The notes: generated by a model not told the origin, from the letters alone. A DNA stretch of 64,000 nt from Gammaproteobacteria bacterium (GCA_965116585.1 OZ220714.1:1477088-1541087), one strand, 5' to 3'. Shown: positions 11,864-48,657, numbered from the stretch's first letter. Program-made: numbers and translations.

Positions 11864-11871
11864 AATGGAGG

Positions 11872-13921: not shown

Positions 13922-13950
13922 CGGGTACATTTCAACGTATAGTCCAAGCC

Positions 13951-15346: not shown

Positions 15347-15361
15347 CGTCTTCCCACTGGA

Positions 15362-15379
15362 TTCCTGCTTGCGCAGGAG
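15362..15379. repeat. GNRA-type hairpin TTCCTGC-TTGC-GCAGGAG between convergent genes; identical 16-mer in inverted orientation at 54146-54161
   Basis: TCCTGCTTGCGCAGGA (15363-15378) equals the reverse complement of 54146-54161. Confidence 0.5.
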
Positions 15380-15394
15380 TGGCGCAGGGAGGAG

Positions 15395-22240: not shown

Positions 22241-22256
22241 TAGCAGAGGTTGCCAT

Positions 22257-30228: not shown

Positions 30229-30255
30229 GTGCTTCTCTCCGCGTATTTACTGTTA

Positions 30256-31599
30256 TCAGCCGACTGCCGCCACCTCTGCCGGCGCGGCATCGGAATAGTC
30301 GATCAGTCGCGACTTATATACTTCCCGCGGCAGCGTTCCGTACGGCACCAGCCGGATATCGGTTGGCACCAGCAGCCGTGACTTCACCTCATCGGTAATG
30401 CGTTGTTGCAGGTGCAAGGGCGGCGCCGGGCTCTGTTCTCCGAGTTCCACCACCACCGGCAACGGCAGGGATTGCCTGACGCCTTGCTGTCTCGGGCGCA
30501 CCTGTATCAGGCCCGACACGTCAGGCGTGAACTCCTTGAGCACGCTGCGCAGCGCCGACGGGAACAGGTTAACACCGCGTACAATAAGCATATCGTCGGT
30601 GCGTCCCACGCAGCGTATTCTGGGGCCGGTGCGCCCCAGCGGGTTGGGTTGCATGTTGACCACGACGTGGTCGCGGCTGCGGAAGCGCAGCAGCGGCATG
30701 GCTTCCCGCTGCAATGCCGTGTACACCAGTTCGCCCTCGGCGCCGTCTTTCCAGGCGCGCGGCGCACCGGTATCGGGGTCTATCAATTCAACGTGGGCAT
30801 AGCCGCGCGCCATGAAGTGCATGCCGTTGCCGTCCGCGTCCTCGGCCCAGGCCGATAAGGTAATGTCGCCGATACCCATGGACTCGCGTACCCGGCAACC
30901 GAACGCGTCTTCCAGGCGCCCGCGAATCAACGGGTCGCCACCACCCGGCTCACCGGCGGTAATCATGTTTTTCAGCCCCAGGCTGCGGGTCGCGATACCC
31001 TGCTTGGCACACCAGTCGATAAGGTACAGTCCGTAGGAGGGCGTGCAACTGATCCCCGTCGCCTGCAAGCGTTGCATGGCGCTGACCAGCCGTTCGGTAT
31101 TGCCGGTGCCTATGGGGATGACCGTGCAACCTATCTTGTTAAAACCGTCATACACCGCGCCGGCGACAAACGGCCCCGCGTTAAACCCGACTACGATACG
31201 CTGCTCCCTGGAAAAACCGGCCGCCGTGTAACCGCGCGCGACATTGGTCGCGTACGCGTCCAGGTCGTTACGGGTCATGCCCAGCAGGCAGGACACCCCG
31301 GTGGTGCCGCTGGTATTGTAAATACGGCGTAATGCTTCCGGGGGGCAGGCCAAGTGCTCACCGAACGGTGGGGAAGCGGCCTGGGTCGCCCTCAGCTCGT
31401 CTTTCTCCGTGAACGGCAGGTGCGCGATGTTATCCAGTTCTCCCACCTGTTCCGGGCTGTGAAACCCGGCCTCGCGCAACTTGCGCTGGTAAAATGTGGA
31501 GCGCTCAAACAGGTACCTGACCTGGTTCCGGTAGGTTTCCCGGTCCAGTGCGAACTGTTCATCGACCGGGCGGGTTTCAATTTCCCGGTCGAACATCAA
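30256..31599 (-). CDS. Phenylacetate-CoA ligase-like adenylate-forming enzyme (PaaK / F390 synthetase family)
   Basis: AMP-binding motif TSGTTGVS. 447 aa. ATGA overlap with the upstream VOC gene. Confidence 0.85.
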   Translation of the reverse strand: MMFDREIETRPVDEQFALDRETYRNQVRYLFERSTFYQRKLREAGFHSPEQVGELDNIAHLPFTEKDELRATQAASPPFGEHLACPPEALRRIYNTSGTTGVSCLLGMTRNDLDAYATNVARGYTAAGFSREQRIVVGFNAGPFVAGAVYDGFNKIGCTVIPIGTGNTERLVSAMQRLQATGISCTPSYGLYLIDWCAKQGIATRSLGLKNMITAGEPGGGDPLIRGRLEDAFGCRVRESMGIGDITLSAWAEDADGNGMHFMARGYAHVELIDPDTGAPRAWKDGAEGELVYTALQREAMPLLRFRSRDHVVVNMQPNPLGRTGPRIRCVGRTDDMLIVRGVNLFPSALRSVLKEFTPDVSGLIQVRPRQQGVRQSLPLPVVVELGEQSPAPPLHLQQRITDEVKSRLLVPTDIRLVPYGTLPREVYKSRLIDYSDAAPAEVAAVG

Positions 31600-32138
31600 C
31601 GGTGGTACGCCTCGTTATTCGGGGTGTGGTCACCGGCAAGCCAGCGCTCAAGTTCGCGCTGGGCCTTGCCGCGCTGGTCTGCGTTGATCTGGTCCATGTC
31701 CTCGTGATCGACGGTAAACTCGATCAGCAGTTTGGACGGGTCATAGACATACAGCGAATAGCAGTAGCCGTGGTTGAGGATGTACATGTCGGGCTCCTGG
31801 TAGCCGGCGTCCCGTAGTCGCGCGACGATGCCATCCTGGGTCTCCTGGTCTACCTTCATGGCCAGGTGCCGGAACGCGGAAAGCGGTAACTCCGGCCCGA
31901 ATTCCTGCTGGTCGTCCTCGTTGGCAAACTGGAAAAAAGCCAGGCATTCGCCATCACCGATATCAAAAAAGCAATGCATATAGATGCGTTCCTTGCCGAA
32001 CAAATCGTTCTTCTCACACCAGGTCGCCACCAGCGGGAAACCGATGATGTCCTCGTAGAACTTCCTGGTAGCCACCATATCCGCAGTGACGTGCGCATTG
32101 TGGTGCAGCCGGCTGTATGCCTTGGGTTTCTCGTTCAT
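31596..32138 (-). CDS. VOC-family (glyoxalase / extradiol dioxygenase-like) protein
   Basis: Two beta-alpha-beta-beta-beta modules with His/Glu metal ligands (HHNAHVTAD…). Confidence 0.75.
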   Translation of the reverse strand: MNEKPKAYSRLHHNAHVTADMVATRKFYEDIIGFPLVATWCEKNDLFGKERIYMHCFFDIGDGECLAFFQFANEDDQQEFGPELPLSAFRHLAMKVDQETQDGIVARLRDAGYQEPDMYILNHGYCYSLYVYDPSKLLIEFTVDHEDMDQINADQRGKAQRELERWLAGDHTPNNEAYHR

Positions 32139-32442
32139 TTTCAGTTACTCCCCCGGGGTGTCCGATTACCGTAACGTGTTATAGCGCGGGATACTATAAT
32201 TTTCGGAAATCGAAGTCAAGTTCGATATGCGAAAAAACTGAACACAGCTTAGGATAACATTTTCAAGATACGCGGTAAATACATCCCGGTACGCTCGACT
32301 ACAGCCATCCCTGGCTTCCGACGGTCTTGTAAATGTTATCCCAAGCTGCCCGTACACTGACATGCCTCCCTTTAACCATTTTGATTCATGCTATAGTTAA
32401 TTGTTCGAACTCCTGTAACTTCAACGAGATAGGGTAATACTG

Positions 32443-33210
32443 GTGAACGACAAGGCGCCGCCGAGCACGGCTATTTGCGGGTTTGACGCTGACAACATAC
32501 TGATTCGCGGGAAAAATCTCGTGAGTGACATCATGGGCAAGTATTCGTTTACGGAATTGTTCCTGCTACAGGCGCTGGGTCGGGAACCTACGGCCCGGCA
32601 ATGCCGCATCGTGGACGCGGTGATGGTGACCATCATGGAACATGGACTGGTGCCTTCGGCGCTGGCTACCCGCTTGACGCATCATGGCGCACCGGAGTCG
32701 TTCCAGGGCGCGGTGGCTGCCGGTCTGCTGGGGGTGGGTGATCGTTATGCCGGCACTGCCGGAGAGTGTGGGGCGCTGCTGGAAGCGATCGTGGCCGCGC
32801 CGGAACCGGAGCGGCAGTCCGTAGCGATGGAGCAGGTTAAAGCTCATCGGCAGATGCGCCGACCCGTTCCCGGTTTCGGCCATCCTATCCATCACGGCAC
32901 AGACCCGCGTGTTGAGAAACTGCTGGAGATTGCGGCGGCGGCGGAGATAGACGGGGACTACGTCAAGGCGATGCGTTTGCTTGAATCCTGTCTGCAGAAG
33001 GCGCTGGACAGACCCCTGGTGATTAACGTCAGCGCCGCCATTGCCGCGGTGCTGGGTGAAGCCGGGGTACCGGCCGCCATGATGCGCGGGGTGGTGCTGA
33101 CCGCCCGCTGCGCCGGCCTGGTGGGCCACCTGTTCGAAGAAATGAATAATCCGATCGCGGGCGCGCTGTGGGTTGACGGCAAGAAAAATATTCAATACCA
33201 GGACCACTAA
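32443..33210 (+). CDS. Citrate-synthase-like small-domain protein (citryl-CoA lyase-like)
   Basis: GFGHPIH resembles the citrate synthase GFGHRVY catalytic motif. ~255 aa, short-form family. Confidence 0.65.
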   Translation: MNDKAPPSTAICGFDADNILIRGKNLVSDIMGKYSFTELFLLQALGREPTARQCRIVDAVMVTIMEHGLVPSALATRLTHHGAPESFQGAVAAGLLGVGDRYAGTAGECGALLEAIVAAPEPERQSVAMEQVKAHRQMRRPVPGFGHPIHHGTDPRVEKLLEIAAAAEIDGDYVKAMRLLESCLQKALDRPLVINVSAAIAAVLGEAGVPAAMMRGVVLTARCAGLVGHLFEEMNNPIAGALWVDGKKNIQYQDH

Positions 33211-34013
33211 TGTGGGTTGACGTCAGCGGCGGCCGGTTGTACCTGGAGCAGGCGGGGGAAGGAACACCGTTACTGCTGATGCACGGCTGGACCCTGGACC
33301 ACCGTATGTTTGCACCGCAGATGTCACCGCTCAGTGAACGCTTGCATGTCATCACCTACGATCGGCGCGGGTTTGGCCGCTCTGACGTGACCCCGGACCT
33401 GGACCTGGAACTTGACGACCTGGACCGCATCGCTGACGTCTTGTCCCTGGATACCTTGCACCTGCTGGGCATGTCCCAGGGCGCGCGGCTGGCGTTGCGC
33501 TATGCCGTGACCAGGCCGCAACGCTTACGCTCCCTGCTATTGCAGGGCGCGGTGGTGGACGGGCTGGTCGTCGACGGGCCGGAGCATGAGACCATTCCTT
33601 TCTTCGACTATGCGGAACTGGTGCGCACCGGACAGATCGAGCTCATGCGCCGGCGCTGGTCGCAGCATCCGTTACTGGCGCTACGTCCTGGGCTGGCGCG
33701 CGCCAGACACCTGCTTGACGACATCCTCAACGATTACAACGGCGCCGACCTGCTCGATTTCTCGCCAGAGATGTTTACCACCACCCTGGACGTGCTCGGG
33801 AAACTTCCCCTGTTGCGCGTGCCGACCCTGCTCCTCACCGGCGCAATGGAAACCGTCCGGCTGCGGGCACATGCCGGAAAACTGCTGGAGCTGATTCCGC
33901 ACAGCCGGGAGGTGGTCTTTGCACACAGCGGCCACCTGAGCAACATGAGCGAACCGGAGTTATTTAACGAGCAGGTGCTGCGCTTCTGCGCGGGTGTTGA
34001 TGAGGTACTGTAA
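33210..34013 (+). CDS. Alpha/beta-fold hydrolase
   Basis: HGW oxyanion motif and GMSQG nucleophile elbow. Confidence 0.85.
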   Translation: MWVDVSGGRLYLEQAGEGTPLLLMHGWTLDHRMFAPQMSPLSERLHVITYDRRGFGRSDVTPDLDLELDDLDRIADVLSLDTLHLLGMSQGARLALRYAVTRPQRLRSLLLQGAVVDGLVVDGPEHETIPFFDYAELVRTGQIELMRRRWSQHPLLALRPGLARARHLLDDILNDYNGADLLDFSPEMFTTTLDVLGKLPLLRVPTLLLTGAMETVRLRAHAGKLLELIPHSREVVFAHSGHLSNMSEPELFNEQVLRFCAGVDEVL

Positions 34014-34044
34014 TGATCTGAATAGCGCCACACTCGTCACTACA

Positions 34045-34200
34045 AACCCTCCTTAAAATGCCACCTCTTGACCATCAGCGTGACCTATGTACTATACTTC
34101 ATAAAGAGCCAGTAACAACGCGCAATAACACCCGGCACAGGCCGCACCATGAATAACACGATGTAATAATAATTGGAGGCTATCCTCATGAGCAAACCCG
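34045..34200 (+). promoter_or_regulatory. Promoter/5'UTR block of giant gene 1 (TTGACC-16/17-TACTAT around 34068-34096); ~150 bp near-identical copy at 40938-41092
   Basis: Direct sequence comparison. Only ~3 mismatches over the shared ~140 bp, including an identical GGAGG RBS and MSKP start. Confidence 0.65.
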
Positions 34201-37200
34201 TTGGAACCCTTGAGCAAATCGCTGATCAACTGATTCAAGGCGCCATCAAATGGGCCACGTCCAGCGCCAGGCCCATCCCGGTGGATCTCTCCCGCCTTGA
34301 CGCCGACGGCCAATTCCTCGCCCGCACCGCGCTCGACTTGTGGACCAGCGCCACCGGCATCAGGTTCGAGGAGGTCAGCATCCCAGTCGACCAGGGCGGG
34401 ACTCCGCAGGACCGCGGCATACTCTTCGAGTATCACAGTTCATCCCAGTTCACTTGGCATACCTATGGTGTCGACGGCTGGATTTCCTCCTCCGTCCGTG
34501 TGCGCCAGGCCGTTGCGTCCAACGCCGTCAGCCAGAATCAGTCCGGCGAATACACCATCGACAATCCGCGATCACTGCATATTTTCGTGCACGAGATCGG
34601 CCATGCCCTCGGGCTTGGGCATCCCGGTAACTACGACGGCGGCGGGGTGACTTATGAGAATAACGCCAAATTCGCCAACGACAGTTGGCAGATCTCGGTC
34701 ATGTCCTACTTCAGGCAAGAGGAGAACACCTGGCTCGACGCCACCAACGCTGGTCCGGCGACCCCCATGGCCGCCGACATCCTCGCCCTTGAGAAGCTTT
34801 ACGGAGACAGCAATGCCATCCGTACCGGCGACACTACCTATGGCTTCCATTCCGACGCCGGCGGCTTCCTCGACGAGCTTGCCCGGCACATGCAGGCAGG
34901 CGGGCTGTTCGCCTTTACCCTGATCGACGACGGCGGCACGGACACTTTTGATTATTCCGGTGCCAGTAAGGACAGCCGCGTTGACCTGACCCCCGGTGCC
35001 GCCTCCGACATCTTCGGTGGCGAGGGCAACATGGTGATCTACCAGGACAGCGTCATCGAGCATTTTGCCGGTGGCGCCGGTGCTGACGATGTCACCGGCA
35101 ATGATGTCAACAACGTGCTTCGTGGCAATGCAGGGAATGACACACTCGATGGCGGCGAGGGTAATGACATTCTGATCGGTGGCGCCGGCGGCGATACCTT
35201 GACGGGTGGCGCCGGCACCGACACCTTCTGGTTTGCGCACAGTAATTTCGGCGCCGACACCATCACCGATTTCGAGGATGGCGCGGAGCAGATCAGTTTC
35301 AGCGGCTCGGGACTCAGCTATACCGATCTCACCATCAGCGACAGTGGCGCCGACAAGCTCATCGACGCCGGCGCTGGCAACCGTATCACCCTGACCGGGC
35401 AGGCGGGCGCCACGATTGACGCGGCGGACTTCGTCTTCGTCGAGCCGAGCCTGACCATCGACGACGTCACGGTCATTGAAAGCGGCACCGCCCGGTTTGT
35501 GCTGCGCCTGTCCAGCGCTGTCACGACCAACGTTGCTGTCGAATGGCGCACTCAGGATGGTACTGCTATTGACGGCAGCGACTATAAGGGCGCCAGCCAA
35601 TGGCAGACTGCCGTAATTCGTGCGACAGAGCTCGAAACGGCAATTGAAATTCGGATAGCCCACGACCTCATCGTTGAGGGCGACGAGAATTTCAGCCTTG
35701 AGCTGCGCAATCCGCAAGGCGCTACCCTCACCGATGCGACGGTCGAAGCTGTCATCAAGAACGCCGCCCCACCCGTCGTATCGGTTGGGGATGTCACGGT
35801 TAACGAATCACAAGGCCCGGCGCAGATTCCCGTCACGCTTGACCGGCCGCTCGAGGCAGGTGAGCAGGTCACTTTCCGCTTACGCTTTCTTGACGGCACC
35901 GCTGAAGGAGGGGCTGATTACAATGTTCTGAAGAATGCCGCCGCCAGGAAGGTATACGTCATCGAGGGTGAGGGCGCCGACCAGTTGCTCGTGCCGCGTG
36001 CCGTAATCAACGATAAACTCCACGAGTCAGACGAGCAGTTCACGCTTGAGATTTTCAACGTTGAAGGCGCAACGGTGGCGGATGCGACCGGCACTGTCAC
36101 TATCGTCGACAATGACAATGATTCCCATCCCACAATCTCATTAGGCGCCTCAGGGATTGCGAATGAAGGCCGCTATGCCATCGTAGGTGTGCAGTTGAGC
36201 AAGCCGCACGATGAAGAAATCACTGTCTACTATACGGTGAATAATTTTACCGCGACAGAGGGTGAGGACTATTTGCGTGGCTACACGGGCTCTTCGGGAC
36301 AAGTCACTGTGCCAGCGGGTCAGCTTTACGCGCCGATTGTTGTGGAGACCCTAGCTGACAGCAAGGACGAAGGATGGTATGAGGATGCCTTGGTGCGAAT
36401 TACCGGTGTCGAGGGAAATTTCAAGCTTCAGCGATTTGCGACCCAGCGCTCAATAACCATCTACGAGGATAACTACAAAACAATCCATCCTGTCAGCATT
36501 GAAGATATTACCGTCATTGAAGGCGGGAAGGCCCAAATAACTCTCAGCAAGCCTACCCGGTATGATGGCGGTGTCTTGATAGATGTGAGCACCGCAGATG
36601 GCACGGCGCAGGCTGGTAGCGACTATATAGCCGTCACCAATCAGCAGGTCTTTATTCCTTCGGACGCCTACAGCGCCAGTTTTACCGTGGACATCCTGGA
36701 TGATGGTGTTCTCGAAGGTGAGGAAAGCTTCAAAGTCATCTTGAACGAACTGAAAGGTGGCGCCAGGCTGGTGGATTCGGTTGCCACTGTCTCGATACTC
36801 GACGGGCCTTCTTCAACAGGGCAGGAACAGCAAGCGGAGGAGACGCCCGCATACGATGGTCTGACCGTCACCGGCACCGACGCCGGTGAGATATTGGAAG
36901 GTGACAGGGACGGCGACCTGATCGAAGGCCTTGGCGGGAATGACGATCTGTTCGGCTACGGCGGCGATGACATCATCAGGGGTGGGCCCGGCAAGGATTT
37001 CCTCGAAGGCGGCGCGGGCGATGACATACTCGAGGGTGGCGCGGACAGCGACGTCCTGACCGGCGCACTCGGTAACGACACTTTGCGCGGCGGCGCCGGT
37101 GCGGATGCGTTTGACATCTACGGTGGAGACGGGCAGGACGTGGTGGAAGACTTCGATCCGGATGCCGGCGATATGGTCATCCTGGACTCGGTGGGCTTTG

Positions 37201-40187
37201 CCGACTATGCCGGGATGCTGGCTAACCATGCCGTGCAGGACGGCAATGACGTGGTGATTTATACCGACGAAAGCGGCACGACCAATAGTGTCACATTAAA
37301 GAACACGCAACTGTCGGACCTGAGCGCGAACGATTTCTCGATCACACCATCGGAAGATTTCAGCGAGGACATTAGCCAGGACACGGGGCAGGGGGCCGAT
37401 CCGGACTACAGCGAGTTGATTGGCATGGTGCGGGGCTATGCTGCGGAGACGTTCCAGGGTCAGGCGCACGTGGACCGCTGGATGAAGGTGCTGGCGGCCT
37501 TTGGTGATGACAACGGCTATGCGCCCATGACGGCGGAGGAAGCCCAGACCTATGCCGGTTACGGCTGGCACCGCTGGCTACGGGTGGCCGAGGCATTGAC
37601 CGAAATCGAAGCGGAACAGGAGGCAAGCACGCCGCCGGTGGCCGCTATCGACAATGTGACCGTCACCGAGGGCGGCGATGCCGCGTTCACTGTGAGTCTC
37701 AACAAGACCTGGACCGAGGACGTCACCCTTACCTGGAGAATAGCCGACGGCACAGCAACGTATGGCAGCGACTACACCGGCCAGACCGGCCAAACCCTGA
37801 CCATCGCCGCGGGCCAGCAGAGTGCGACCATCACCGTGCAGACCACTGATGATGCCATCGACGAGCCGGATGAAACCTTCGCTGTCATATTGAGCGCTCC
37901 CTCCAATGCCACCATCGGCACAGCCGCAGGAGAGGCCACCCTCACCGACAACGATGCCGCGCCCTCATTGTCCATTGACGACGTAACCGGGACCGAAGGC
38001 GATATGCTCCAGTTCACTGTCTCGCTCGATGCAGTCTCCGGCAAGGACGTTACTGTCAACTGGAGCACGACCGACGGCACTGCAACGGATGGCAGCGACT
38101 ACACCGGCCAGACCGGTCAAACCCTGACCATCACCGCCGGCCAGCAGGATGCCACCATTACGGTGCCGACCACCGACGACAGTGACGATGAGCCAGACGA
38201 GACCTTCACTATCACCCTGAGCTCCCCCACCAATGCCACCCTGGGCGATACCAGCGGCGAAGCCACCCTCACCGATAACGATGACCCGCCACCACCAGGC
38301 AAGTACGACGCGCTGATTGCCGACGTGCGTGACTATGCCGCCGAGACGCACCAGGGCCAGGCCCACGTGGACCGCTGGATGCAGGTGCTGGCGGCCTTTG
38401 GTGATGACAATGGCTATACGCCCATGACTGCGGAGGAAGCCCAGACATTCGCCGGTTACGGCTGGCACCGCTGGCTACGGGTGGCCGAAGCATTGACCGA
38501 AATCGAAGCAGAGCAGGCGGCGCAGCAAGCGGCAAGCACGCCGCCGGTGGCCGCTATCGACGATGTATCCGTCACCGAAGGCGGCGATGTCGAGTTCACC
38601 GTCAGTCTCGACAAGACCTGGACAGAAGACGTCACCCTTACCTGGGACACGTCCGACGGCACAGCTACAGATGGCAGCGACTACACCGGCCAGACCGGTC
38701 AGACACTCACCATCGCCGCCGGCCAGCAAGACGCCACCATAACAGTGCAGACCACCGATGACGCCATTGATGAGCCGGATGAGAACTTTACGGTGACCTT
38801 GAGCGCTCCCACCAATGCCACCATCGGCACAGCCACCGGGGAGGCCACCCTCACCGACAACGACGCCGCGCCGTCGCTGTCCATTGATGATGTAAGCGGG
38901 ACCGAAGGCGACATGCTCGAGTTCACCGTCTCGCTCGATGCGGTCTCCGGCAAAGACGTGACGGTCAACTGGACTGCGACCGACGGCACGGCAACAGATG
39001 GCAGTGACTACACCGGCCAGACCGGTCAAACCCTCACCCTCGCCGCGGGCGCACATTTCGCGACCCTCTGGGTGCAGACCACGGATGACAGTGAGGATGA
39101 GACCGACGAGACCTTTACCATCACCTTGAGTTCACCCACCAACGCCACCATCAGCGATGCCATTGGCGAGGCCACCATTACCGACAACGATGAGCCCACC
39201 CCCTCCCTGGACGACCCGCTCACCCCGCCCGACAACGGCCAGGGGAAGAAGGCGGAGGAAGGGAATGACTACAGCGAGCTGATTGCCGACGTGCGCGCTT
39301 ATGCTGCCGAAACCCACCAGGGACAGGTCCACGTGGACCGCTGGATGCAAGTGCTGGCGGCGCTGGGCGAGGACAACGGCTATACCCCCATGAGTGCCAC
39401 CGAGGCCCAGACCTACGCCGACCGTGGCTGGGCGCGCTGGGACCCGGTGGTGGAAGCCTTGACCGAGATAGAGGCGGAATCCGAGCCAGAGCCAGAGCCA
39501 GAGCCTGAACTCGAACCAGACCCGGAACCCGAACCCGAGCCAGACCCGGAACCAGAGCCGGAACCCGAGCCGGACCCGGAACCCGAACCCGACCCGGCGC
39601 CCACCCCCTGGCACCACAACGGCCTCACCCTGACCGGCACCGACGAGGTGGACTCGCTGGTTGGCTCAGACGACAACGACCTGATCGACGGGCGCGGGGG
39701 CAGGGACTATATCAACGGTAGCTTCGGCCACGACCGCATGACCGGCGGCGCGGGCGATGACAGGTTTACCATCTACGGCAACTTCGGCCGCGACGTGATC
39801 ACCGATTTCAACCCGGATGAGGGCGACAGCTTCTTCCTCATCCAGGTGGGCTTCGCCGACTTCGACGAGATGCTGGCGAACCATGCCGAACAAATCGGCA
39901 ACGACGTGGTCATTTACACCGATCCCAGCGGCAAGGAAGACAGCATCACCTTGTTGGACACCGACCTTGCCGATCTGGACGAATCCCAGTTTGCGATTTT
40001 CGCGGGCACGGGGCCGACGCCACCGGCGTCTCAGTTGAGCGCTCAGGTAGCCGGCCGCGTGTCCGTGCCGGCGCTGTCGTTGGCCTTGGGGGATGGGGGT
40101 GTGGGGGGTTACGATGCCGGTGTGGATGAGTTTGGCATTGAGGCACTGATAGGAGACTATTACGACGGGTACTTTGGGATTGTTTAG
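34188..40187 (+). CDS. Giant secreted multidomain protein: serralysin-like (M10B) zinc metalloprotease + RTX beta-roll + multiple Calx-beta domains + 3 copies of an unrecognised ~70-aa module + Glu/Pro linker + RTX repeats + C-terminal tail; likely a type I secretion substrate
   Basis: [12 protein letters not shown] zinc motif and SVMSY Met-turn. GGxGxD nonapeptide runs ([35 protein letters not shown]). Repeated Calx-beta-like units (…DGTAxxGSDY…). No N-terminal signal peptide. ATG at 34188 with a GGAGG RBS; the ORF-track start at 34173 is a TTG. Confidence 0.9.
39478..39600 (+). repeat. (GARCCN)n hexanucleotide microsatellite encoding an (E/D)P dipeptide linker
   Basis: gagccagagccagagccagagcctgaactcgaaccagacccggaacccgaacccgagccagacccggaacc… translates to [40 protein letters not shown]. 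Confidence 0.85.
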
Positions 40188-40238
40188 TCACTGTATGTAT
40201 CAATGGAATGCCGCGCTCTTGATCGAGTGCACGAGTAT
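40186..40238. pseudogene. Duplicated fragment of the iclR 3' end and its downstream sequence (copy of 43518-43571)
   Basis: cgcgctcttgatcgagtgcacgagta at 40212-40237 is identical to 43545-43570, the last codons (…LVHSIKSA) of the IclR gene at 43534..44358. Confidence 0.6.
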
Positions 40239-40279
40239 AAGTAACTTGCAGTGGGGGACGTTAGGCAGTAATGAGGGTG

Positions 40280-40651
40280 TTATTTCGGAAAGTACCTGAC
40301 GTTTTTTAAATCCTTGAAATCCATATCCTGCGTCCATATTGTTGCATTATATCTCCGCGCCGTTGCGTAAATTATGCTGTCTGCCAAGGGAAGTTTATAT
40401 TCAACTCCAAAGTAGGCCGCTTTCACCGCCAACCCCTCAGTCAGTGAAACAACCTTCCCCTGTTCCATATGTGTAATAGCCTTCAGAGCTGCATCCTCAC
40501 CCCGCCGACGCATGATAACTTTGAAAACCTCAGTCAAGGTGATGCTGGGCACCAGCAATTCTTCCAGTCGTCCAATCGGTTCGGCAAAACATCGTGAATT
40601 TTTTTCACTGGTAAAATAGGATAACCACCCGGATGAGTCGACCACGTTCAT
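40280..40651 (-). CDS. vapC: VapC-type PIN-domain toxin
   Basis: MNVVDSSGWLSYF N-terminus. Conserved PIN acidic residues. 123 aa. ATGA overlap with the upstream antitoxin. Confidence 0.85.
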   Translation of the reverse strand: MNVVDSSGWLSYFTSEKNSRCFAEPIGRLEELLVPSITLTEVFKVIMRRRGEDAALKAITHMEQGKVVSLTEGLAVKAAYFGVEYKLPLADSIIYATARRYNATIWTQDMDFKDLKNVRYFPK

Positions 40652-40854
40652 ACCCGATCTTCATCGCGCTCCAGAGTTGTATCCATGCCTTTCAGAAAGC
40701 CTCTCAAGTTCTCCATTGGCTCTATGGGAATCAGATGTATCCGATCGCGGTAATTGATCATCTGAATCTTCTGTCCCGAGACAATTCCACTTTCCTCCCT
40801 GATTTCTTTAGGAATTACAATCTGATATTTTGGTGAGACGGTAACAGTAGTCAT
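40648..40854 (-). CDS. vapB: AbrB/MazE/SpoVT-type antitoxin (VapB)
   Basis: MTTVTVSPKYQIVIPKEIREESGI swapped-hairpin motif. Internal ATG at 40852-40854 with a GGAAGAG RBS. Canonical toxin-antitoxin size and overlap. Confidence 0.75.
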   Translation of the reverse strand: MTTVTVSPKYQIVIPKEIREESGIVSGQKIQMINYRDRIHLIPIEPMENLRGFLKGMDTTLERDEDRV

Positions 40855-41079
40855 GGGAGCTCTTCCATCGAAAAAATATGGTACTACGATAGTATTATCG
40901 ATACGGGATGTCAAGAAAAAGCAACACCCTGTTCAAAAACAACCCAAATCCCAAACCTCTTGACCATCAGCACGACCTATGTACTATACTTCATAAAGAG
41001 CCAGTAACAACGCGCAATAACACCCGGCACAGGCCGCACCATGAATAACACGATGTAATAATAATTGGAGGCTATTCCC

Positions 41080-43467
41080 ATGAGCAAACCTAGCATATCG
41101 GTTGGGGATGTCACGGTTAACGAATCACAAGGCCCGGCGCAGATTCCCGTCACGCTTGACCGGCCGCTCAAGGCAGGCGAACAGGTCACTTTCCGCGTGC
41201 GCTTTCTTGACGGCACCGCGGAAGGCGGGCCTGACTACAATCCTCTGCAGAATGCCGCCGCCAGGAAGGTATACGTCATCGAGGGCGAGGGAACCGATCA
41301 GTTGCTCATTCCGCGCGCCGTGATTAACGACAGACTTCACGAGTCTGACGAGCAGTTCACGCTTGAGATTTTCAACGTTGAAGGCGCAACGGTGGCGGAT
41401 GCGACCGGCACTGTCACCATCGTCGATAACGATAGTGATACTTCCCAGCCGACAGCCTTCATCGGGGACTTCGCAAAAGTGATTGAAGGCAACTACGCTG
41501 TCTTGCAGATAGGGCTGAGCAAGCGAGTCGCGCACGATGTCACAGTTACTTATGAGCTGGTGGACGATTCCGCGACAGCGGGTGAGGACTATGAGCGCGG
41601 CTACTCTGGCGCTCTGGGAACAGTCACCATCCCCGCGGGGCAGGCCAGTGCGCCAATCACAGTGCAAACCCTGCCCGACAACCTCAGTGAAGGTGGGGAG
41701 TTGCTTATCATATTTATCCGCGAGGTCAATGGAGGCGTTACCCATCCACCCCTGAATGCAGGCTTCGTGAAGATCTATGACGACAGGAAATTTCCACTTC
41801 CTGGCATTACCATTGACGATGTTACCGTCATTGAGGGCGGCAAGGCACAGTTCACCGTCAAGCTGGCATATGCTGCTTCCGGCGGTGTCACGCTGGACTG
41901 GAGCACTTCGGACGGCACGGCGCAAGCCGACGACGACTACGTTGCGGTGACCAATCAGCAGGTTTTCATTCCCGGGCCCGAAAAAAGTGCCACCTTCACC
42001 GTGGATATCCTCAGTGATGCTGTTCTCGAAGGCGAGGAAAGCTTCACCGTGACCTTGAGCAATCCGCAAGGTTTCGGTCGCCTGGTGGACGCGACGGGCA
42101 CAGTCACGGTGCTCGACGGGCCTGTTTCAACAGGGCAGGCACAGCAAGCGGAGCAGGAGCCCGCGCAACAAGAGACGCCCGCATACGATGGTCTGACCGT
42201 CACCGGCACCGACGCCGGTGAGGTGCTCGAAGGCGACGTGGACGGCGACCTGATCGAGGGCCTTGGCGGGAATGACGATCTGTTCGGCTACGGCGGCGAT
42301 GACATCATCAGGGGCGGGCCCGGCAAGGATTTTCTCGAAGGCGGCGCGGGCGATGACACGCTCGAGGGTGGCGCGGACAGCGACGTCCTGACCGGCGCCG
42401 AGGGCAACGACACCTTGCGCGGCGGCGCGGGCGCGGATGCGTTTGACATCTACGGCGGAGACGGGCAGGACGTGGTGGAAGACTTCGATCCGGATGCCGG
42501 CGATATGGTCATCCTGGACTCGGTGGGCTTTGCCGACTATGCCGGGATGATCGCCAACCATGCCGTGCAAAACGGTAATGACGTGGTGATTTATACCGAC
42601 GAGAGCGGTACCACCAACAGCGTCACCCTGAAGAATACGCTGCTATCGGACCTGAGTGCGAACGATTTCTCGATCACACCATCGGAAGCTTTCAGCGAGG
42701 ACAATAGCCAGGACACGGGGCAGGGGACCGATCCGGACTACAGCGAGTTGATTGGCATGGTGCGGGGCTATGCTGCGGAGACATTCCAGGGTCAGGCGCA
42801 CGTGGACCGCTGGATGCAGGTGCTGGCCGCGTTTGGTGATGACAACGGCTACACGCCCATGAGTGCCACCGAGGCGCAGACCTACGCCGACCGCGGCTGG
42901 TCGCGCTGGGACCCGGTGGTGGAAGCATTGACCGAAATCGAAGCGGAGCAGGCGGCGCAACAACAAGAGCCGGCCCCCACGCTGGACGATCTCACCACAC
43001 CTGACAACGGCCAGGGGAAGAAATCGGAGGAAGGGAACGACTACAGCGGGCTGATTGCCGACGTGCGCGGCTATGCCGCCGAGACGCACCACGGCCAGGC
43101 CCATGTCGACCGCTGGATGAAAGTGCTGGCGGCCTTCGGCGATGACAACGGCTATACGCCCATGACCGCCGCCGAGGCGCAGGAGATGGCCGACAAATGG
43201 TCGGCGAGCCGCTGGAACCCGGTGGTGGAAGCCCTTACCGAGATCGAAGCGGAACAGGCAGCGCAACAAGCCAGGGATACCTCAACCGAACCCGACCCGG
43301 CGCCCGATCCTGTACCCCAAACCGAGCCAGACCCGGCACCCGAACCCGTCCCGGCGCTGTCATTGGCCTTGGGGGATGGGGGTGTGGGGGGGTACGATGC
43401 CGGTGTGGATGAGTTTGGCATTGAGGCGCTGATAGGGGACTATTACGACGGGTACTTTGGGAATTAG
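41080..43467 (+). CDS. Truncated mosaic paralog of the giant protein: Calx-beta domains + RTX repeats + 2 copies of the unknown module + the same C-terminal tail; no protease domain
   Basis: Same 5'UTR and MSKP start. N-terminus aligns to gene 1 at ~35.77 kb. Blocks identical to gene 1 alternate with diverged blocks. Confidence 0.85.
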   Translation: MSKPSISVGDVTVNESQGPAQIPVTLDRPLKAGEQVTFRVRFLDGTAEGGPDYNPLQNAAARKVYVIEGEGTDQLLIPRAVINDRLHESDEQFTLEIFNVEGATVADATGTVTIVDNDSDTSQPTAFIGDFAKVIEGNYAVLQIGLSKRVAHDVTVTYELVDDSATAGEDYERGYSGALGTVTIPAGQASAPITVQTLPDNLSEGGELLIIFIREVNGGVTHPPLNAGFVKIYDDRKFPLPGITIDDVTVIEGGKAQFTVKLAYAASGGVTLDWSTSDGTAQADDDYVAVTNQQVFIPGPEKSATFTVDILSDAVLEGEESFTVTLSNPQGFGRLVDATGTVTVLDGPVSTGQAQQAEQEPAQQETPAYDGLTVTGTDAGEVLEGDVDGDLIEGLGGNDDLFGYGGDDIIRGGPGKDFLEGGAGDDTLEGGADSDVLTGAEGNDTLRGGAGADAFDIYGGDGQDVVEDFDPDAGDMVILDSVGFADYAGMIANHAVQNGNDVVIYTDESGTTNSVTLKNTLLSDLSANDFSITPSEAFSEDNSQDTGQGTDPDYSELIGMVRGYAAETFQGQAHVDRWMQVLAAFGDDNGYTPMSATEAQTYADRGWSRWDPVVEALTEIEAEQAAQQQEPAPTLDDLTTPDNGQGKKSEEGNDYSGLIADVRGYAAETHHGQAHVDRWMKVLAAFGDDNGYTPMTAAEAQEMADKWSASRWNPVVEALTEIEAEQAAQQARDTSTEPDPAPDPVPQTEPDPAPEPVPALSLALGDGGVGGYDAGVDEFGIEALIGDYYDGYFGN

Positions 43468-43490
43468 GAATTAGGAATTAAGAATTGGGA
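43461..43490 (+). repeat. Heptanucleotide tandem repeat (GAATTAG)x~4 spanning the stop codon of the paralog; absent from gene 1
   Basis: gene 2: …tttgggAATTAGGAATTAGGAATTAAGAATTGGGAttgtttag. gene 1: …tttgggattgtttag. Changes the C-terminus from …YFGIV to …YFGN. Confidence 0.8.
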
Positions 43491-43533
43491 TTGTTTAGGG
43501 AAACTCTGCCCCCAGACCCTTAATCGCTGTATG

Positions 43534-44358
43534 TCAATGGGATGTCGCGCTCTTGATCGAGTGCACGAGTACCGGGTAGCGGCGTAATTCCTGTTCGATT
43601 TTTTTGGCCGCTGCCTGCAGGTGCGGCAGGCGCGTGGTGATCATCTCCTCCTGGTTGACCCGAGTGGTCGCGGTGGAACAGTTGATCGCCGCAAGGATCT
43701 CGCCGTCATTATCGAATACCGGCACGGCGACGGAGACAATGCCGTAATCCAGTTCATCCTGGACGGAGGCAAAACCCTGGCGCCTGCAACGCGTCAGGAT
43801 TTTTCGGAGTTGCGCCCTGGAGGTCACCGTCTTGTCGGTAAGTTTCTCCGGTTTGATCCGGCTCAGGTAGTCTTCGATATAAGCATCGGCCTGATAGGCG
43901 ACCAGCACCCGGCCCAGGGACGTCGGGTAGACCGGAAAGCGCGTGCCGAAACCGGCGCCGAGCCTGACCATGCGGTTGGTGGAAACATGCACCAGGTATA
44001 AAATATCAAGCTGTGACAGCACTGCCAGCGAGGTGCTGTCCCCGGTGCTGTCACGCACGTCCTGGAGGTGAGGGCGGGCAATCTCTTCCAGGTTGACCGA
44101 ATCCAGGAACGCGGAAGCGAAACCTGTCACTTCAGGCGTCAGCAGAAACAATTTGCCTCTCTTCCCGACATAACCCAGTTCCACCAGGGTATTCAAACAC
44201 CGCCTGGCGACGGCGGGGTTCAGACCCGTTGCCGCAGCGACTTCACTCAATGTCATTTCCGGGTTGTCCCCGGTGAACGAGCGCAGCACCGACAGCCCGC
44301 GCGCCAGGGTGCTGAGGTATTCGCCGTCTTTTTTCGGCTTGTCTGCTTTGTTGTTCAC
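43534..44358 (-). CDS. IclR-family transcriptional regulator (PcaR/PobR-like)
   Basis: N-terminal winged helix-turn-helix LSVLRSFTGDNPEMTLSEVAAATGLNPAVARRCLNTLVELGYV. C-terminal effector domain. Confidence 0.9.
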   Translation of the reverse strand: MNNKADKPKKDGEYLSTLARGLSVLRSFTGDNPEMTLSEVAAATGLNPAVARRCLNTLVELGYVGKRGKLFLLTPEVTGFASAFLDSVNLEEIARPHLQDVRDSTGDSTSLAVLSQLDILYLVHVSTNRMVRLGAGFGTRFPVYPTSLGRVLVAYQADAYIEDYLSRIKPEKLTDKTVTSRAQLRKILTRCRRQGFASVQDELDYGIVSVAVPVFDNDGEILAAINCSTATTRVNQEEMITTRLPHLQAAAKKIEQELRRYPVLVHSIKSATSH

Positions 44359-45116
44359 GGCCTGACACCATCGCAGCCTGACGGCGCCGGCAGGGTCGCG
44401 ACCGTGGTTTCAATCCAATCCTCCGTTTCACGGATGATTTGTGCGGCCTTCTTGCCCTGCGTCGGTATGGGCGGGCCGATGACCATGCGGATCCGGCCGG
44501 GCCGTTTGAGAAAGCTGTTGCGTGGCCACAGGTAGCCGGCATTGTGTGCGATGGGGACCACCGGACAGCCGGACTTTTCCGCCAGCATGGCGCCGCCGGG
44601 ATGGTATTTTTGGCGCACACCCGGTGGCAGCCGGGTGCCTTCCGGGAACACCACCACCCATAATCCTGCGTTCAACCGTTCCATGCCCTGGCGCACGATC
44701 TGTTTCAGTGAACGGACGCCCAGGGAACGGTCGATGGCGATGGGCTTCATGGCCGCCAGTCCCCAGCCGTAGATAGGGATATGCAGCAATTCCCGCTTCA
44801 GTATCCACACCTGGGGCGGAAACAATAGCTGGATCATGAGGGTTTCCCAGGCGGACTGGTGCTTGCACATGATGATCGCGGGCTCATCAATAATGTTTTC
44901 CCGCCCGGCAACGTCCGCTTTTATCCCGCAGGTCACCCCCAGCCACCACAGGTTGAACCTGGCCCAGTTCGCTACCAGGCGAAACCTGAGCGGGAAGGGG
45001 ACCGCCAGCAGCAGCAAGGTAATGGGCACCGCAATGAGGGTCGAGATTGCCATTCCCAGTAGAAACAGCGCGGACCTGAACCACCGTAACAGGCCGGGCC
45101 CGGCGCGCTCATCCAT
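44355..45116 (-). CDS. plsC: 1-acyl-sn-glycerol-3-phosphate (lysophospholipid) acyltransferase
   Basis: HQSxxE acyltransferase motif (KHQSAWET) and FPEGTR motif. Likely start MDERAGP at 45114-45116; the ORF-track N-terminal extension overlaps gmhB. Confidence 0.85.
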   Translation of the reverse strand: MDERAGPGLLRWFRSALFLLGMAISTLIAVPITLLLLAVPFPLRFRLVANWARFNLWWLGVTCGIKADVAGRENIIDEPAIIMCKHQSAWETLMIQLLFPPQVWILKRELLHIPIYGWGLAAMKPIAIDRSLGVRSLKQIVRQGMERLNAGLWVVVFPEGTRLPPGVRQKYHPGGAMLAEKSGCPVVPIAHNAGYLWPRNSFLKRPGRIRMVIGPPIPTQGKKAAQIIRETEDWIETTVATLPAPSGCDGVRP

Positions 45117-45651
45117 GATCGGCAAGGAGTGCGGCGGCAGCCTGGGCCAGGTCGTCATGGACGGGGATGTTGTCCGGGATGATGCCCTCGTCCAGTTGCC
45201 TTTGCCCTTTGCCGGTTCTGACCAGGATGGGGCTTGCGCCGACGGCCTGCGCGGCCTGTATGTCACTCAGCCGGTCGCCGATGACGGGCACGCCGGACAG
45301 TGGCGTATGCAGCCTTCTTTCAATTTCCCGGAACATTCCCGGCGCGGGTTTACGGCAGTCACAGCCTGCGTCCGGCCCATGCGGACAGAAGAAAACGGCT
45401 TCTACCACACCGCCGTACTGGGCCAGGTGAGTGTGCATTTTCCTGTGGATCCGGTTCAATTCCTGCAAGGTGAACTTGCCCCTGGCCAGTCCGGACTGGT
45501 TGCTGGCGATGACCGCGTGGTAGCCGCTTTGATTAAGCCGGGCGATGGCTTGCAGGCTGCCGGGCAGGGCCTGCCATTCCTGTTCCGACTTGATATAGTC
45601 GTCGGAATGCCGGTTAATCACACCATCCATGTCGAGGATGATCAACTTCAT
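45109..45651 (-). CDS. gmhB: D-glycero-beta-D-manno-heptose-1,7-bisphosphate 7-phosphatase (HAD family)
   Basis: DMDGVIN HAD motif I. CxH…CxC zinc site (CPHGPDAGCDCRKP). Conserved position after glyS as in Pseudomonas. Confidence 0.85.
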   Translation of the reverse strand: MKLIILDMDGVINRHSDDYIKSEQEWQALPGSLQAIARLNQSGYHAVIASNQSGLARGKFTLQELNRIHRKMHTHLAQYGGVVEAVFFCPHGPDAGCDCRKPAPGMFREIERRLHTPLSGVPVIGDRLSDIQAAQAVGASPILVRTGKGQRQLDEGIIPDNIPVHDDLAQAAAALLADHG

Positions 45652-47777
45652 TGCAGTCTTGAGACGTCGGCTGTCGCCAGGAACAGTTGTCGTAACCCGT
45701 GTAACAGGGCCAGCCGGTTGTGTCTTAACGCCGTATCCTCACACATGACCATCACTTCGTCGAAGAAGGCGTCCACGCCATCCCGCAAACCTGCCAGCGC
45801 GGTCAGGCGGGTGATGTAGTCGTTTGTCGCGCCCTGCTGCTGCGCCTGACACTCAAGCATTTTCTCATGCAGCGCCTGCTCTGTTTGTTCCACCAGCAAG
45901 GCCTGGTCCGGGCCGTTCCCGCCGCTGAATTGCGCCTGTTTCAGGATATTGCGGATGCGTTTGTTGGCGCTTACCAGATCCTCGGCTTCCGGCAGGCGCA
46001 GAAACTCGCCTACGGCCAGCACCCGCAGGTTGAAATCATGCGGCTGCGTTGGCCGGCACGCCTGCACCGCATCAAACACGCCGGGAGCGGCCCCGTTATC
46101 CAGGTAATAACGCCGCAACCGGTCCAGCATAAAGTCAAATACTGCGCCGGTCACTGCCGCAGCATTCACGGAGTCCGGAAAAGTGCCGGCCGCGTGTGTC
46201 AGGCAGGCTTCCAGGTCCAGCGGCAGGGCACATTCAATCATGATGCGCAGACACCCGAGGCCGGCGCGGCGCAGGCCGAAAGGGTCCTTGGCGCCGGTGG
46301 GGCCTTTACCGATGGCAAAAATCCCGGTCAGGGTATCGAGTTTGTCCGCCAGCGCCAATGCCCGACCAGTATCGGTCTGCGGTAACGCGGCGCCGGCGTA
46401 GCCGGGCATGTATTGCTCTTGCAGCGCCTGGGCGACTTCCGGGTGTTCACCGCTTTCTTCGGCGTAGTAACGTCCCATCGTCCCTTGTAGTTCCGGAAAC
46501 TCACCGACCATCTCACTCAACAAATCGCATTTGGCCAGGCGGGCTGCGCGTGCGACCCGGTCCGGCGCAAATCCCAGTTGCTCTGCAATATACCTGCCCA
46601 GGCTGCCGATACGCGCCGTCTTGTCTGCAAGTGTGCCGAGTTGTTGCTGGAAAATCACCTTGTCGGTCTCGCCCAGATACTCAAGCGGCGCCTTGCCCGG
46701 AGATACGTTGGCGGATGCTGTGCCCGCGCCGCTTGACGCTTGGGTTTGCAGCCTGGCGCGATCCCTCTCCCGGAAAAATGCAGCATCGCTCAAACGCGGC
46801 CGGATGACCCGTTCATTGCCGCGCTGGACCGCGTCGGGGTCGGCGCTGTCGATATTGGCGATAGTAATAAAATTGGCGGTTAATGCGCCGGTATCCGGGT
46901 CCAGTACGGGAAAATATTTCTGGTGCGACTGCATACTGGCAATCAGCACTTCTTGCGGGAGTTGCAGAAATTCGGCATCGAATGTCCCGGTGACGGCAAC
47001 CGGCCACTCCACCAGCGCGCTGACCTCGTCCAGTAACGCCTCATCGATCTGTGCCCTGCCTCCACAGTCATGCGCAATATCGGTGGCGGCCCGTTTAATC
47101 TGCTGTTTCCTCTCCTTGAAATCCGCAATCACGCGCCCTTCATCCCGCAACCGGGTTAAATATTGCCCGGCAGCGCCCAGGCTGATCGCCTGCGGATGGT
47201 GAAAGCGATGGCCGCGGGTTTCCCGGCCCGTTGCCATCCCCAGCAGCGTCGCGGGGATGACGTCTGCTCCAAACAGCAACACCACCCAGTGCACCGGCCG
47301 CACAAACTCAACGGCGCCCGCGCCCCAGCGCATACGCTTTGCGACCGGCAACCCGGCCAGCGCCTGCTCAATGATGCCGGGCAAGAGTTCAGCGACACCA
47401 CTGCCTTGCACCAGGCTCCGGTAGGCAAGCCAACTGCCCTTGTCGGTGTCCAGGCGGGTCAGTTCCTCGACCGCCACGCCACAGGAGCGGGCAAACCCCT
47501 GGGCGGCTTTGGTGGGATTGCCGTCCTGGTCATACGCGGCGGCGACGGCCGGCCCGCGCCGGGTGACCTGTTTATCCGCCTGTGCCGGCGCAAGGTTCCG
47601 CACCATAACGGCAAGCCGGCGCGGGGTGGCATACCAGGCGTGGTCCCCGTGTTCAAGGTCTTGTTCCTGCAAACCCCGGTGGACGGCATCGGCCAGCGCT
47701 GCGGCCAGCTTTGCCAGGGACTTCGGTGGCAATTCTTCCGTGCCGATTTCCAGCAATAAATCTTTGTTCTCACTCAT
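45648..47777 (-). CDS. glyS: Glycine--tRNA ligase beta subunit
   Basis: Start [21 protein letters not shown] typical of GlyS. ~710 aa. Follows glyQ directly. Confidence 0.95.
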
Positions 47778-48657
47778 GGCTGCCGCATAACGGAAATCCC
47801 AGCTTTTCCCGCTTGTCGTAATAGGCTTGAGCCACTGCGCGCGCGCTGGTTCTGACCCTGAGGATGAAACGTTGCCGCTCGGTGACGCTGATCGCATGGC
47901 GGGCGTCCAGCAGGTTGAAGATGTGCGATGCCTTCAGCACCAGTTCGTAGGCGGGCAGCGGCAAGCTGTCCTCCACCAGTTTCAGGCACTGCGCTTCACA
48001 TTCATCGAACCAGCGGAACAGGGCGGCGGTATCCGCCTGCTCGAAATTGTAGGCCGACATTTCCACCTCGTCCTGGTGATGGATGGCGCCATAGGTCACC
48101 GGGCCGTTTGCTCCATCTGTCCAGATCAGGTCGTAAACGCTGTCAACGTTCTGCAGGTAAACGGCTATCCGTTCCAGGCCATAGGTAATCTCACCGGAGA
48201 CCGGCTTGCACTCCAGTCCTCCGGCCTGCTGAAAGTACGTGAACTGGCTGATTTCCATACCGTTCAGCCAGACCTCCCAGCCCAGCCCCCAGGCGCCCAG
48301 GGTGGGTGATTCCCAGTTGTCCTCGATAAACCGCACGTCGTGCGTCAACGTATCGATGCCCAGGTGTTGCAATGATGTCAGGTAGAGTTCCTGGATATCG
48401 GCAGGCGAGGGCTTCAATATCACCTGGAACTGGTAGTAGCGTTGCAGGCGGTTCGGGTTATCGCCATAACGCCCGTCGGTAGGCCGCCGGGAAGGTTGCA
48501 CGTAGGCGCAGTGCCAGGGTTCCGGGCCGATTGCGCGCAGAAACGTGGCCGGATGGAACGTGCCGGCGCCCACTTCCATATCGTAGGGTTGTTGTATCAC
48601 GCAACCCCGCTCTGCCCAGAACGCCTGCAGGGACGCAATCAGTTGCTGGAACGTCAT
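47770..48657 (-). CDS. glyQ: Glycine--tRNA ligase alpha subunit
   Basis: [39 protein letters not shown], highly conserved GlyQ N-terminus. 295 aa. Confidence 0.95.

Follow-up and report, generated by a model that had tools for sequence, protein, structure and literature searches.

The DNA stretch considered here, the 64,000-nucleotide (nt) window GCA_965116585.1 OZ220714.1:1477088-1541087 of a Gammaproteobacteria bacterium, carries two related genes for RTX/Calx-beta proteins with a VapBC toxin-antitoxin (TA) pair lodged between them. The locus is bordered by an alpha/beta hydrolase gene (33210-34013, plus strand; Pfam Abhydrolase_1), which forms its conserved left flank, and by an intact, convergent iclR-family regulator gene on the right (43534-44358, minus strand; Pfam HTH_IclR and IclR_C). 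Both family genes lie on the plus strand, namely a giant gene of 1999 amino acids (34188-40187) and a short paralog of 795 amino acids (41080-43467), with vapC (40280-40651; PIN domain) and vapB (40648-40854; AbrB/MazE-type antitoxin) on the minus strand. A promoter/leader block stands before each of the two family genes (34063-34187 and 40955-41079, plus strand). Behind the giant gene come a relic of the ancestral gene/iclR junction (40188-40237, minus strand), consisting of a 12-nt spacer and the last 38 nt of iclR, and then foreign DNA inserted at the join of the duplication (40238-40954, minus strand), that is the vapBC cassette (40237-40918) followed by a 36-nt filler before the second promoter (40919-40954) for which no match was found.

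The giant gene begins with a serralysin-like Zn-protease and a first RTX beta-roll, followed by Calx-beta domains 1 to 4 and an RTX block; a helical module, a Calx-beta pair, a second module, another Calx-beta pair and a third module come next, and the protein ends with a Pro/Glu-rich linker (39470-39597), RTX block 2 (39607-40025) and a tail shared with the paralog (40063-40184). Altogether, Pfam and NCBIfam models recognize seven to eight Calx-beta domains. The paralog starts with the same MSKP residues and continues with Calx-beta 2 to 4, the RTX block, two helical modules, a Pro/Asp-rich linker and the shared tail; in other words, it holds three Calx-beta domains and one RTX block without a protease. 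Both genes retain promoter-like sites and intact reading frames.

A first-pass annotation of this DNA, made by a model from the sequence, had proposed a tandem segmental duplication reaching into iclR, and this view is borne out by the collinear matches between the two copies, which a repeat search and blastn find well beyond the coding repeats. From left to right, 40955-41090 matches 34063-34198 (97.1% over 136 nt, four mismatches, ungapped), 41096-41439 matches 35779-36122 (91%), 41811-42956 matches 36497-37624 (84%), 42960-43354 matches 39184-39579 (79%), the gene tail at 43346-43462 matches 40063-40179 (96% over 117 nt) and the iclR end at 43520-43571 matches the relic at 40184-40237 (89%). 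Chance cannot account for matches of such length and identity. The block comprising the promoter, 5' untranslated region, ribosome-binding site (RBS) and MSKP start is thus duplicated as had been claimed, but it opens at 34063/40955 rather than at 34045/40938; the 18 nt of additional upstream homology do not align, and neither does the sequence further to the left.

Within the block, copy 1 shows TTGACC (34068-34073) and TACTAT (34090-34095) separated by a 16-nt spacer, and copy 2 has the same hexamers at the same spacing (40960-40965 and 40982-40987). The sequence GGAGG (34175-34179 and 41067-41071) precedes by eight nt the ATG codons at 34188 and 41080. The leader of about 90 nt is unstructured. 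A riboswitch or other structured RNA was looked for in the duplicated leader and not found: neither leader was matched at E<=1 in an Rfam covariance-model scan and both fold worse than their shuffles (z +1.0 and +1.7). Some 20 nt upstream of the RBS, both leaders contain the mini open reading frame ATG AAT AAC ACG ATG TAA (34149-34166 and 41041-41058), which encodes MNNTM and a stop and could be a leader peptide or a product of chance.

At the other end of the unit, the relic reads LVHSIKSAAFH and a stop on the minus strand (40200-40237), vs. LVHSIKSATSH and a stop in the real iclR; the LVHSIKSA codons noticed at first pass are indeed there, in a relic of 50 nt. It carries the last 11 codons of iclR and the stop codon (tca at 40200-40202), and its iclR homology ends at 40237, equivalent to 43571, the portion duplicated being the last 38 nt of the gene (43534-43571). 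As delimited by these matches, the duplicated unit is a segment of about 4.2 kb that opens at the promoter, 5 nt before the -35 box, and reaches 38 nt into iclR. Of note, a 19-nt similarity, CTCTTGAnnnnnnGCACGA (14/19), relates 40216-40234 to 40957-40975, and likewise 43552-43570 to 34065-34083; it lies within 4 nt of both unit ends, i.e. at the iclR 3' end and the -35 region. Possibly this is a microhomology that aligned the breakpoints, or else a chance match, and it was not relied upon, the copies being intact on both sides of the insert and the join not lying inside the match.

The polarity of the event can be read from relatives. A protein search with the giant gene retrieved close homologues, all from one ENA sample, and among them contig L023, the flanks of which are 97% identical to those of the window (over 30000-34234 and 43525-48000), with a synonymous divergence (dS) of 0.06-0.09 in five flanking genes, iclR standing at 0.069 and the hydrolase gene being 96-97% identical. 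L023 is a copy-number variant of the sort that the first-pass annotation had asked for, since it carries at this very site, between hydrolase and iclR, exactly one family gene (1332 amino acids) and no vapBC. Its promoter block (9876-10000, about 93% identical to copy 1) matches both window promoters, its mini open reading frame (about 9962-9979) persists as MNNTT and a stop, its head matches the giant head at 88%, and its tail-iclR junction aligns with the tail-1/relic junction of the window at 94% without gaps. Of the promoter block, the tail and the gene/iclR junction, L023 has a single copy each where the window has two, the duplicated unit corresponding to L023 9876-14049 (about 4.2 kb).

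Over the 136 nt of the promoter block, private sites number two in the first copy, two in the second and seven in L023; over the tail they number 3, 1 and 2 in the order copy 1, copy 2 and L023; and the relic has three private substitutions in 50 nt, with one state shared with the window iclR against L023. Given a neutral distance of 6-9% between the window and L023, these counts imply that the duplication, or the last homogenisation of its ends, is younger than the split of the two lineages. An assembly artefact, whereby two strain alleles (the giant gene on the one hand, vapBC and the short gene on the other) would have been falsely joined at the common tail/iclR sequence, has to be weighed at this point, as the relatives come from metagenomes holding several close genomes. 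It is nevertheless highly improbable: three positions and one indel distinguish the relic from the true end of iclR, the cassette junction is sharp and unique, the two copies differ throughout, and an independent assembly, L021, shows an analogous layout.

This L021 contig belongs to a second genome of the same sample and displays a long gene, a VapBC pair and a short gene without protease. There (9158-19081), the layout sits between argS and a pseudouridine synthase gene, with a FitA/PIN pair upstream and a HepT-like toxin gene downstream. The long and short genes of L021 have in common a 158-nt upstream block (93%) unrelated to that of the window, and a common tail likewise unrelated; from unit end to unit start, the spacer holds only the VapBC pair, and no kinship beyond the fold level was found between the two VapBC systems.

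The comparison with L023 also redefines the short paralog, whose body (41093-43462) is collinear with the single L023 gene at 91% identity and shows a dN/dS of about 0.4 against it. The paralog reads as an L023-type gene minus codons 5-541, i.e. the protease, the first RTX and Calx-beta 1, removed in frame with promoter, RBS and MSKP start kept; it would most likely encode the stalk, RTX and module part of the protein without the enzyme. Hence, the description of the paralog as a truncated copy is right for the protease, the first RTX and Calx-beta 1, but it is not a cut-down giant, and the several Calx domains that it was supposed to have lost, namely the extra Calx-beta pairs, are part of the different lineage of the giant, like module 2 and the second RTX block. 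The short genes of the window and of L021 share the right deletion breakpoint (CCn-AnC-ATA-TCG) and differ in the left one, which falls after codon 3-4 in one of them and after codon 8 in the other. At the paralog 3' end only, a GGAATTA heptamer is repeated 4.4 times (43460-43490) and followed by about 25 further nt, this derived sequence at the second gene/iclR junction (43460-43524, plus strand) being found neither in copy 1 nor in L023. The expansion creates an early TAG, so that the paralog ends with ...GYFGN rather than with ...GYFGIV, an altered C-terminus that might affect a C-terminal secretion signal.

As for the DNA at the join, vapB and vapC overlap by 4 nt, antitoxin first, behind a promoter-like site TTGACA-17-TATCGT (40914-40886), and they are matched by domain models (PIN, E 3.8e-17; MazE/AbrB, E 3.3e-8; TIGR01439, 1.6e-12). 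The insert amounts to 717 nt with a GC content of 44.7%, vs. 57.4% for the window, and these two are its only open reading frames with domain matches. The closest VapC (98% amino acid identity) is encoded on contig L024 of a different sample, with RHS-repeat genes on one side and a cluster resembling pilus/type II secretion genes on the other; window 40237-40918 equals L024 10415-9734 over 682 nt at 98.5%, ungapped, and the similarity drops abruptly at both ends. On the left, the cassette begins exactly where the iclR homology of the relic breaks off (40237/40238), and the 36-nt filler on the right (40919-40954) has no match elsewhere. From this comparison, the vapBC segment is a mobile 682-nt cassette, acquired horizontally. 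The pair does lie at the junction between the copies, as previously noticed, but not as a passive occupant, for the left edge of the cassette coincides with the duplication breakpoint. Neither a transposase nor an integrase was found in the insert, no terminal inverted repeats or target-site duplication surround the cassette, and a PLSDB plasmid search with the cassette gave no match. In L024 (8827-10627), the vapBC copy is set within an array of 163-nt repeats, each with a GGGATGG...CCATCCC hairpin, which are spaced at 348 and 1235 nt and recall a cassette array; an integron-like mechanism was not supported for the window, from which this hairpin repeat is absent.

An IclR scan of species-representative genomes gave 17 relatives at 62-86% amino acid identity (uncultured Gammaproteobacteria, Woeseiaceae and others). 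The hydrolase lies 13-125 nt from iclR, tail-to-tail, in 11 of the 12 that keep a hydrolase, and over 10 kb neither a family gene nor vapBC is present in any of the 17. With the block missing from all 17 of these more distant relatives, the whole of 34014-43533 is to be considered as an insertion. In the Halioglobus metagenome-assembled genome L014, the same convergent iclR/hydrolase gap contains an unrelated open reading frame of 607 amino acids (10817-12640), so that cargo seems to land repeatedly in this gap. This L014 gap would also suit site-specific integration, in which vapBC, promoter and short gene form an island targeting the iclR 3' end, the 50-nt relic and the iclR end being its attL and attR; such islands are classically recognised by foreign, low-GC DNA bracketed by a direct repeat of a gene's 3' end. 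We find this scarcely credible, as no integrase or recombinase open reading frame exists within 40238-43519, the repeat runs unbroken past iclR into the 117-nt tail and the rest of the gene, merely 682 nt of the segment are foreign, and the L023 gene already adjoins iclR before any insertion.

The interior of the two copies has a different history from their ends. The first-pass annotation had described near-identical blocks alternating with divergent ones, and the alternation is present at both the amino acid and the synonymous level. At the protein level, the copies agree at about 92% of positions in Calx-beta 2 and at about 96% across the RTX block and first module, with about 35-60% for Calx-beta 3-4, and sliding-window dS between them varies from 0-0.15 up to more than 1.3, being low at 42100-42540 and 42661-42804 and high at 41620-41980, with a fine-scale switch at 42541-42660. 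Among codons for identical amino acids, the synonymous differences are clustered, with a variance reached in none of 5000 permutations (0/5000), so that differences in constraint cannot explain the mosaic and the segments must have separate histories.

The giant interior (about 34240-40060) is an allelic type distinct from both L023 and the paralog. The giant centre is 88.8% identical to the L021 short gene, and the paralog centre is 88.6% identical to the L021 long gene and 91% to L023, i.e. the body types of L021 are swapped relative to the window. A seven-sequence alignment distinguishes at least four discrete Calx-beta 3-4 types, with 35-75% identity between types, and on either side the Calx-beta 2 and RTX/module segments keep 85-99% identity at every locus. 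Moreover, the second RTX block of the giant (39607-40025) is of the L020/L021 kind (83-85%), L020 being a contig of the second genome, and the promoter and tail of the giant go with the local L023 type, which makes the giant gene a chimera with local ends and a foreign-type interior. Family heads form a patchwork over four loci. Tracts 98-100% identical connect L023 11622-12100 with L021 11590-12070 (Calx-beta 2-3), and L021 with L020 10001-10200 (5' end), the sequence beside these tracts being only 85-90% identical; such tracts point to very recent exchange among co-occurring genomes of one sample. The whole family evolves by frequent recombination in conserved segments, and the earlier suggestion of a recombination-prone locus can be extended to tracts exchanged across loci and genomes. 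Local hypermutation, for instance by a diversity-generating retroelement, was considered for the variable centre, but the pattern speaks for recombination, as the types are discrete, about 700 nt long, synonymously saturated and shared between genomes.

Because dS exceeds 1 in the centre while the unit ends are only 3-4% apart, below the neutral 6-9%, the deep divergence predates the duplication; it was introduced through recombination with other members of the family and did not arise in situ. The same figures can be approached from the opposite side by supposing an ancient tandem pair, in which the long-TA-short order is old, its ends have been homogenised by gene conversion and L023 is a collapsed form produced by a crossover in Calx-beta 2 that removed the left body, vapBC and the second promoter. 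The L023 gene does combine a giant-type head with a paralog-type body, as expected from a crossover of 35779-36122 with 41096-41439; central types A and B, at dS >1, both occur in L021, where the long-TA-short layout is also found, and leaders and tails are alike within genomes and unrelated between genomes, as under concerted evolution. Still, the relic is non-functional and has no more than its three private substitutions in 50 nt, so that it cannot be as old as dS >1, a depth with which the private-site counts of the unit ends do not fit either. Besides, promoter branch lengths of 2/2/7 do not fit orthology of the first promoter and L023 with an older second promoter, the L023 head, at 88%, is no nearer to the giant head than heads from other loci, the cassette is young as judged from its near-identical copy elsewhere, and collapse would cost an addiction module. 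On balance, the ancient pair appears unlikely.

Another possibility is the replacement of the whole locus by an allele from elsewhere, the tandem having been formed in another strain or species and having entered through recombination in the flanks, in the manner of capsule or O-antigen loci, in which case the local history would say nothing about the place where the duplication arose. Identity to L023 does fall from 96-97% to about 88-91% at around 34235 and recover at around 43525, dS is 0.18-0.32 inside the locus vs. 0.07 in the flanks, and family segments are 98-100% identical between genomes of one sample. On the other hand, the promoter block, tail and relic, which are inside the locus, stand at approximately the neutral flank distance from L023 and so look vertical; such a transfer would merely relocate the event, since a duplication including the iclR 3' end would still be needed. 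A wholesale replacement is quite unlikely.

Taken as a whole, the locus is, with moderate confidence, best explained by a foreign vapBC insertion flanked by a duplication of the 4.2-kb gene unit, and subsequently remodelled. The ancestor possessed a single RTX/Calx-beta protease gene with its own promoter between the convergent hydrolase and iclR genes, the arrangement that persists in L023. After the split from L023, 717 nt of foreign DNA with vapBC would have become fixed, flanked by the direct duplication of the unit; the anatomy would fit equally well if a tandem duplication had arisen spontaneously and the cassette had then entered its join. In the right copy, codons 5-541 would then have been lost in frame, giving a protease-less Calx-beta/RTX protein, and the heptamer would have expanded at the 3' end, changing the last residues; for both of these changes, the difference is seen in the alignments and the order is deduced. 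In the left copy, the interior (about 34240-40060) would have been replaced or extended by recombination with members of the multi-locus family, and would thereafter comprise an ancient central Calx-beta type, extra modules and a second RTX block. By analogy with known addiction modules, vapBC may then hinder collapse of the duplication, as recombination between the copies would delete vapBC and post-segregational killing would select against the loss.

Several points weigh against this explanation. Only the left edge of the cassette abuts the duplicated unit, with the filler lying on the right, and a 4.2-kb target exceeds every published case about tenfold in length. The donor of the giant interior is not visible in the 64-kb window, for which reason the replacement step is an inferred one. 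Later gene conversion, instead of a young duplication, could also account for the similarity of the unit ends, and the two-copy arrangement was read from the assembled sequence alone. Finally, a TA or restriction-modification (R-M) module is present in 3 of the 8 joins examined, and tandem RTX arrays also exist without any, as at the first join of L025 and the four joins of L026, so that a TA system is not required.

These other joins deserve description in their own right. L025 (1-14100) has three tandem family genes with a common leader and tail; the first join is clean, and only the second holds a DNA adenine methyltransferase gene and an open reading frame of 227 amino acids with a weak HincII-like match (E 0.02), which together make a probable R-M pair. 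L026 has five tandem RTX genes and no such inserts at its four joins. Three joins out of eight is far above the expectation for random intergenic regions, bearing in mind that such modules gather in variable regions generally.

Tandem duplications are frequent in bacteria and quickly lost by recombination, the survival of a duplicate until divergence being the crux of Ohno's dilemma. For R-M gene complexes, insertion with long target duplication was reportedly described by Nobusato and colleagues in 2000. R-M "insertion with long target duplication" involves repeats of 46-423 bp and no other mobility genes (Furuta, Abe & Kobayashi, 2010; PMC2853133). The window is comparable in several respects, as it presents a small addiction-type module without transposase or integrase, missing in the collinear relative L023; direct repeats flank the insert, are single-copy in L023 and exceed 30 bp; and the insert is shorter than 20 kb with a GC content departing from that of the host. 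It differs in that the insert consists of VapB and VapC without R and M homologues, which places it outside the class as defined, in that the target of about 4.2 kb contains a complete promoter and gene, hence a paralog predicted to be expressed, and in the 36-nt filler on one side. TA loci are also reported to keep arrays rich in repeats from being deleted (Szekeres et al., 2007, reviewed in PMC5543033), as described for relBE/parDE in the Vibrio superintegron and mosAT in SXT (PMC5543033). In the window, similarly, recombination between the long direct repeats on either side of the TA pair would remove it; unlike the superintegron or SXT, there is no integron, attC site or integrative and conjugative element, and the candidate for stabilisation is a two-copy gene duplication. 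From there, a general concept may be put forward, that is TA and R-M modules acting as a duplication ratchet, whereby insertion with a kilobase-scale target duplication yields whole additional gene copies, collapse removes the module and kills, and the duplicate therefore persists and becomes a paralog; we regard this generalisation as tentative and rather doubtful at this stage.

Multigene families of surface and secreted proteins are known for concerted evolution and cassette shuffling, and orphan modules are found downstream of Rhs and CdiA genes. Like shuffling families, that of the window has conserved ends, a centre variable in discrete types and exchange in conserved segments, and the succession of a full-length gene and a shorter relative resembles the Rhs/CdiA orphan layout. 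Unlike those orphans, the short gene comes with a promoter, RBS and start codon of its own; it is missing the enzymatic head at the N-terminus instead of offering an alternative C-terminal toxin, and no immunity genes accompany it.

Regarding the proteins themselves, the giant head contains the zinc site HEXXHXXGXXH (34590-34622; amino acid 135) and the Met-turn SVMSY (amino acid 170), is matched by Peptidase_M10 and Peptidase_M10_C in Pfam and scores 201 bits against Zn_serralysin of NCBIfam, below the 500-bit cut-off, and 12 GGxGxD-like motifs are distributed in three blocks (HemolysinCabind, E 1e-23). The serralysin-family metalloproteases, like large RTX/Calx-beta exoproteins, are type I secreted (RTX review, PMC3034196), and the giant shares with serralysins the HEXXHXXGXXH site, the SxMSY Met-turn, the beta-rolls of GGxGxD nonapeptides and an acidic C-terminal region with a hydrophobic end (...DGYFGIV). 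Unlike them, it continues past the protease for about 1500 amino acids, with Calx-beta domains, a helical module not described before and two more RTX blocks. Most likely, the giant product is a Ca2+-dependent metalloprotease, type I secreted and carried on a long Calx-beta stalk, and the products of both genes are probably Ca2+-dependent type I secretion substrates. As with other type I substrates, a relative, the single long family gene of L020, adjoins C39-ABC and AprE-like membrane-fusion secretion genes. In the 64-kb window, no dedicated type I secretion genes (ABC transporter, membrane-fusion protein and outer-membrane protein) were found, only a MacB-type tripartite pump cluster (OEP, HlyD-family and MacB/FtsX; 20263-25447), the 607-amino-acid HlyD-family protein of which bears an N-terminal PAS domain, an unusual fusion.

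The helical module, of about 75 amino acids (...EALTEIEAE), occurs three times in the giant (37401-37631, 38298-38528 and 39264-39494) and twice in the paralog (42733-42963 and 43036-43266). Its best AlphaFold model is a four-helix unit with a pLDDT of 90.9, the other four models ranging from 53 to 72. It could not be assigned by Pfam, NCBIfam or a PDB fold search, and a profile built on it matches 907 representative proteins, mostly with 2-5 copies each; JGI metagenome scans with the paralog and with the module profile returned no relatives. Searches for sequences identical to the paralog, IclR, VapC and hydrolase proteins were likewise negative, so that the genome of the window is absent from the collection searched. 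Elsewhere in the window, an open reading frame of 1179 amino acids (15395-18934, minus strand) has no Pfam match at E<=1e-5.

The window and L023 constitute a natural before-and-after pair, in which a unit made of promoter and gene was doubled around an acquired TA cassette and the new copy was rapidly remodelled, through the loss of its protease head and the exchange of central domains. Beyond this single locus, an actively recombining, multi-locus family of RTX/Calx-beta proteases with discrete central types is documented in uncultured marine-type Gammaproteobacteria. If it is true that the cassette protects the duplication, a little-known behaviour of R-M systems would extend to TA systems and to duplications on the scale of a gene, and selfish modules would then represent a simple and testable route to new paralogs of secreted proteins, as a recurrent driver of paralog birth.

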